41,469 nt of DNA from Candidatus Falkowbacteria bacterium (GTDB lineage: Bacteria > Patescibacteriota > Patescibacteriia > Patescibacteriales > VMTK01), in assembly GCA_043802685.1 (NCBI GenBank), contig JAZDKT010000078.1:1-41469 (forward strand), given 5' to 3'; not shown here. A report on this DNA, generated by a model with database tools, continues below.

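Follow-up and report, generated by a model that had tools for sequence, protein, structure and literature searches.

The gas-vesicle island differs from its flank in how closely it matches related strains. We observe that 23831-34253 is 99.86% identical to the related assemblies L087-L090, and that identity to the same assemblies in the housekeeping flank (13896-23474) is 90.7-94.8%, with 97.4% in L090. The switch in identity falls immediately 3′ of the bactofilin gene, and a 19-nt tandem repeat lies at 23431-23486, about 350-400 bp from it, with a pilin-like ORF in between. This ORF of 100 aa, which separates the island from the MFS gene, is the stretch that differs most between strains (~88% identity). 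It has no N-terminal hydrophobic segment, and its match to FliC is sub-threshold only.

Positions of named features in the window
Feature	Position
Pyruvate:ferredoxin oxidoreductase beta	7806-8756
Pyruvate:ferredoxin oxidoreductase alpha	11253-12473
Pyruvate:ferredoxin oxidoreductase delta-type ferredoxin	12600-12920
Pyruvate:ferredoxin oxidoreductase gamma	12960-13604
23S_rRNA_IVP / bAvd-like gene	13642-14043
LeuRS	17728-20856
Pilin-like ORF	23545-23847
Winged-helix family gene	36124-36462
115-aa protein family gene	36473-36820
Divergent cassette	37817-39883
Hairpin	38860-39000

A second discontinuity was found within the island. In comparisons with the strains L092-L095, a cassette comprising both helical repeat-family genes, the Zn-finger gene and the 3′ part of gvpA is ~74-76% identical or cannot be aligned, while the DNA adjoining it is 98-99.85% identical in the same strains. 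The shell and scaffold genes are thus divergent alleles next to near-identical machinery. Confined to this allele is a hairpin (-66 kcal/mol, z -12) in which a 14-bp outer stem encloses a perfect 26-bp stem. Immediately upstream of it, short words are repeated in direct orientation. The hairpin may be a palindromic element that was inserted, or a terminator specific to this strain.

The middle gvpF/L gene differs by a single nucleotide. On the minus strand, a poly-A run at ~28783-28792 is A10 here; the other assemblies spanning the site have A9. This 1-nt insertion at 28783 frameshifts the gene, with loss of the conserved C-terminus. The extra A could be a homopolymer sequencing error or a defect of this strain; the run could also be a slippage-prone or phase-variable site.

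A C-terminal [LIVMF]-x-Tyr-COOH tail is conserved in two small protein families of the cluster that are not related to each other. Comparing the two window proteins with their homologs in loci L001, L012, L016, L023, L024, L026 and L032, we found the tail in 8/8 members of the 115-aa family and 7/14 of the winged-helix family, some of which add a final Gly, against 0.7% of background ORFs. This common tail suggests a putative common docking motif.

Volactin-family actins from the loci L044-L086 (Planctomycetota, Binatia) form a separate clade, common in Planctomycetota, with 42-47% identity to the island actin and no gvp genes within 10 kb. For the helical family, the homolog at L020:582-1289, from an Omnitrophota UBA10183 locus, contains three clear repeats of 33 residues. 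Cyanobacterial GvpC has the same repeat period, and sequence similarity to it is not detectable.

The leucyl-tRNA synthetase (LeuRS) has an alpha/beta serine-hydrolase domain (PF06821, 49 bits) inserted at residues ~403-550, after the editing domain; L087 and L088, both sister assemblies, carry the same insertion. In the pyruvate:ferredoxin oxidoreductase gene set (7806-13604), beta is separated from alpha by accessory genes of low GC, which encode a DUF2283 protein, a RelE-like toxin and a pilin of the T4SS (TrbC/VirB2 type). The 23S_rRNA_IVP / bAvd-like gene, of the four-helix-bundle type, lies amid housekeeping genes and has a very low GC3 of 0.19. Tandem arrays of 7-8-nt units (GTTACGC x8, TCGTTAAC x4, CGTTACG x4, CATAATT x5, CGTTATG x6) lie at gene boundaries of the housekeeping part, at 6537-6600, 11201-11233, 12944-12973, 16164-16195, 16447-16483 and 22252-22291, among others, and two more are intragenic (11685-11741, 18825-18864). 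In composition, the left end (1-6000) forms a second compartment of the contig: it is markedly AT-rich (30% GC, GC3 0.24). Its products are mostly without family; it also encodes a GIY-YIG fragment and a DUF2807 adhesin-head protein.
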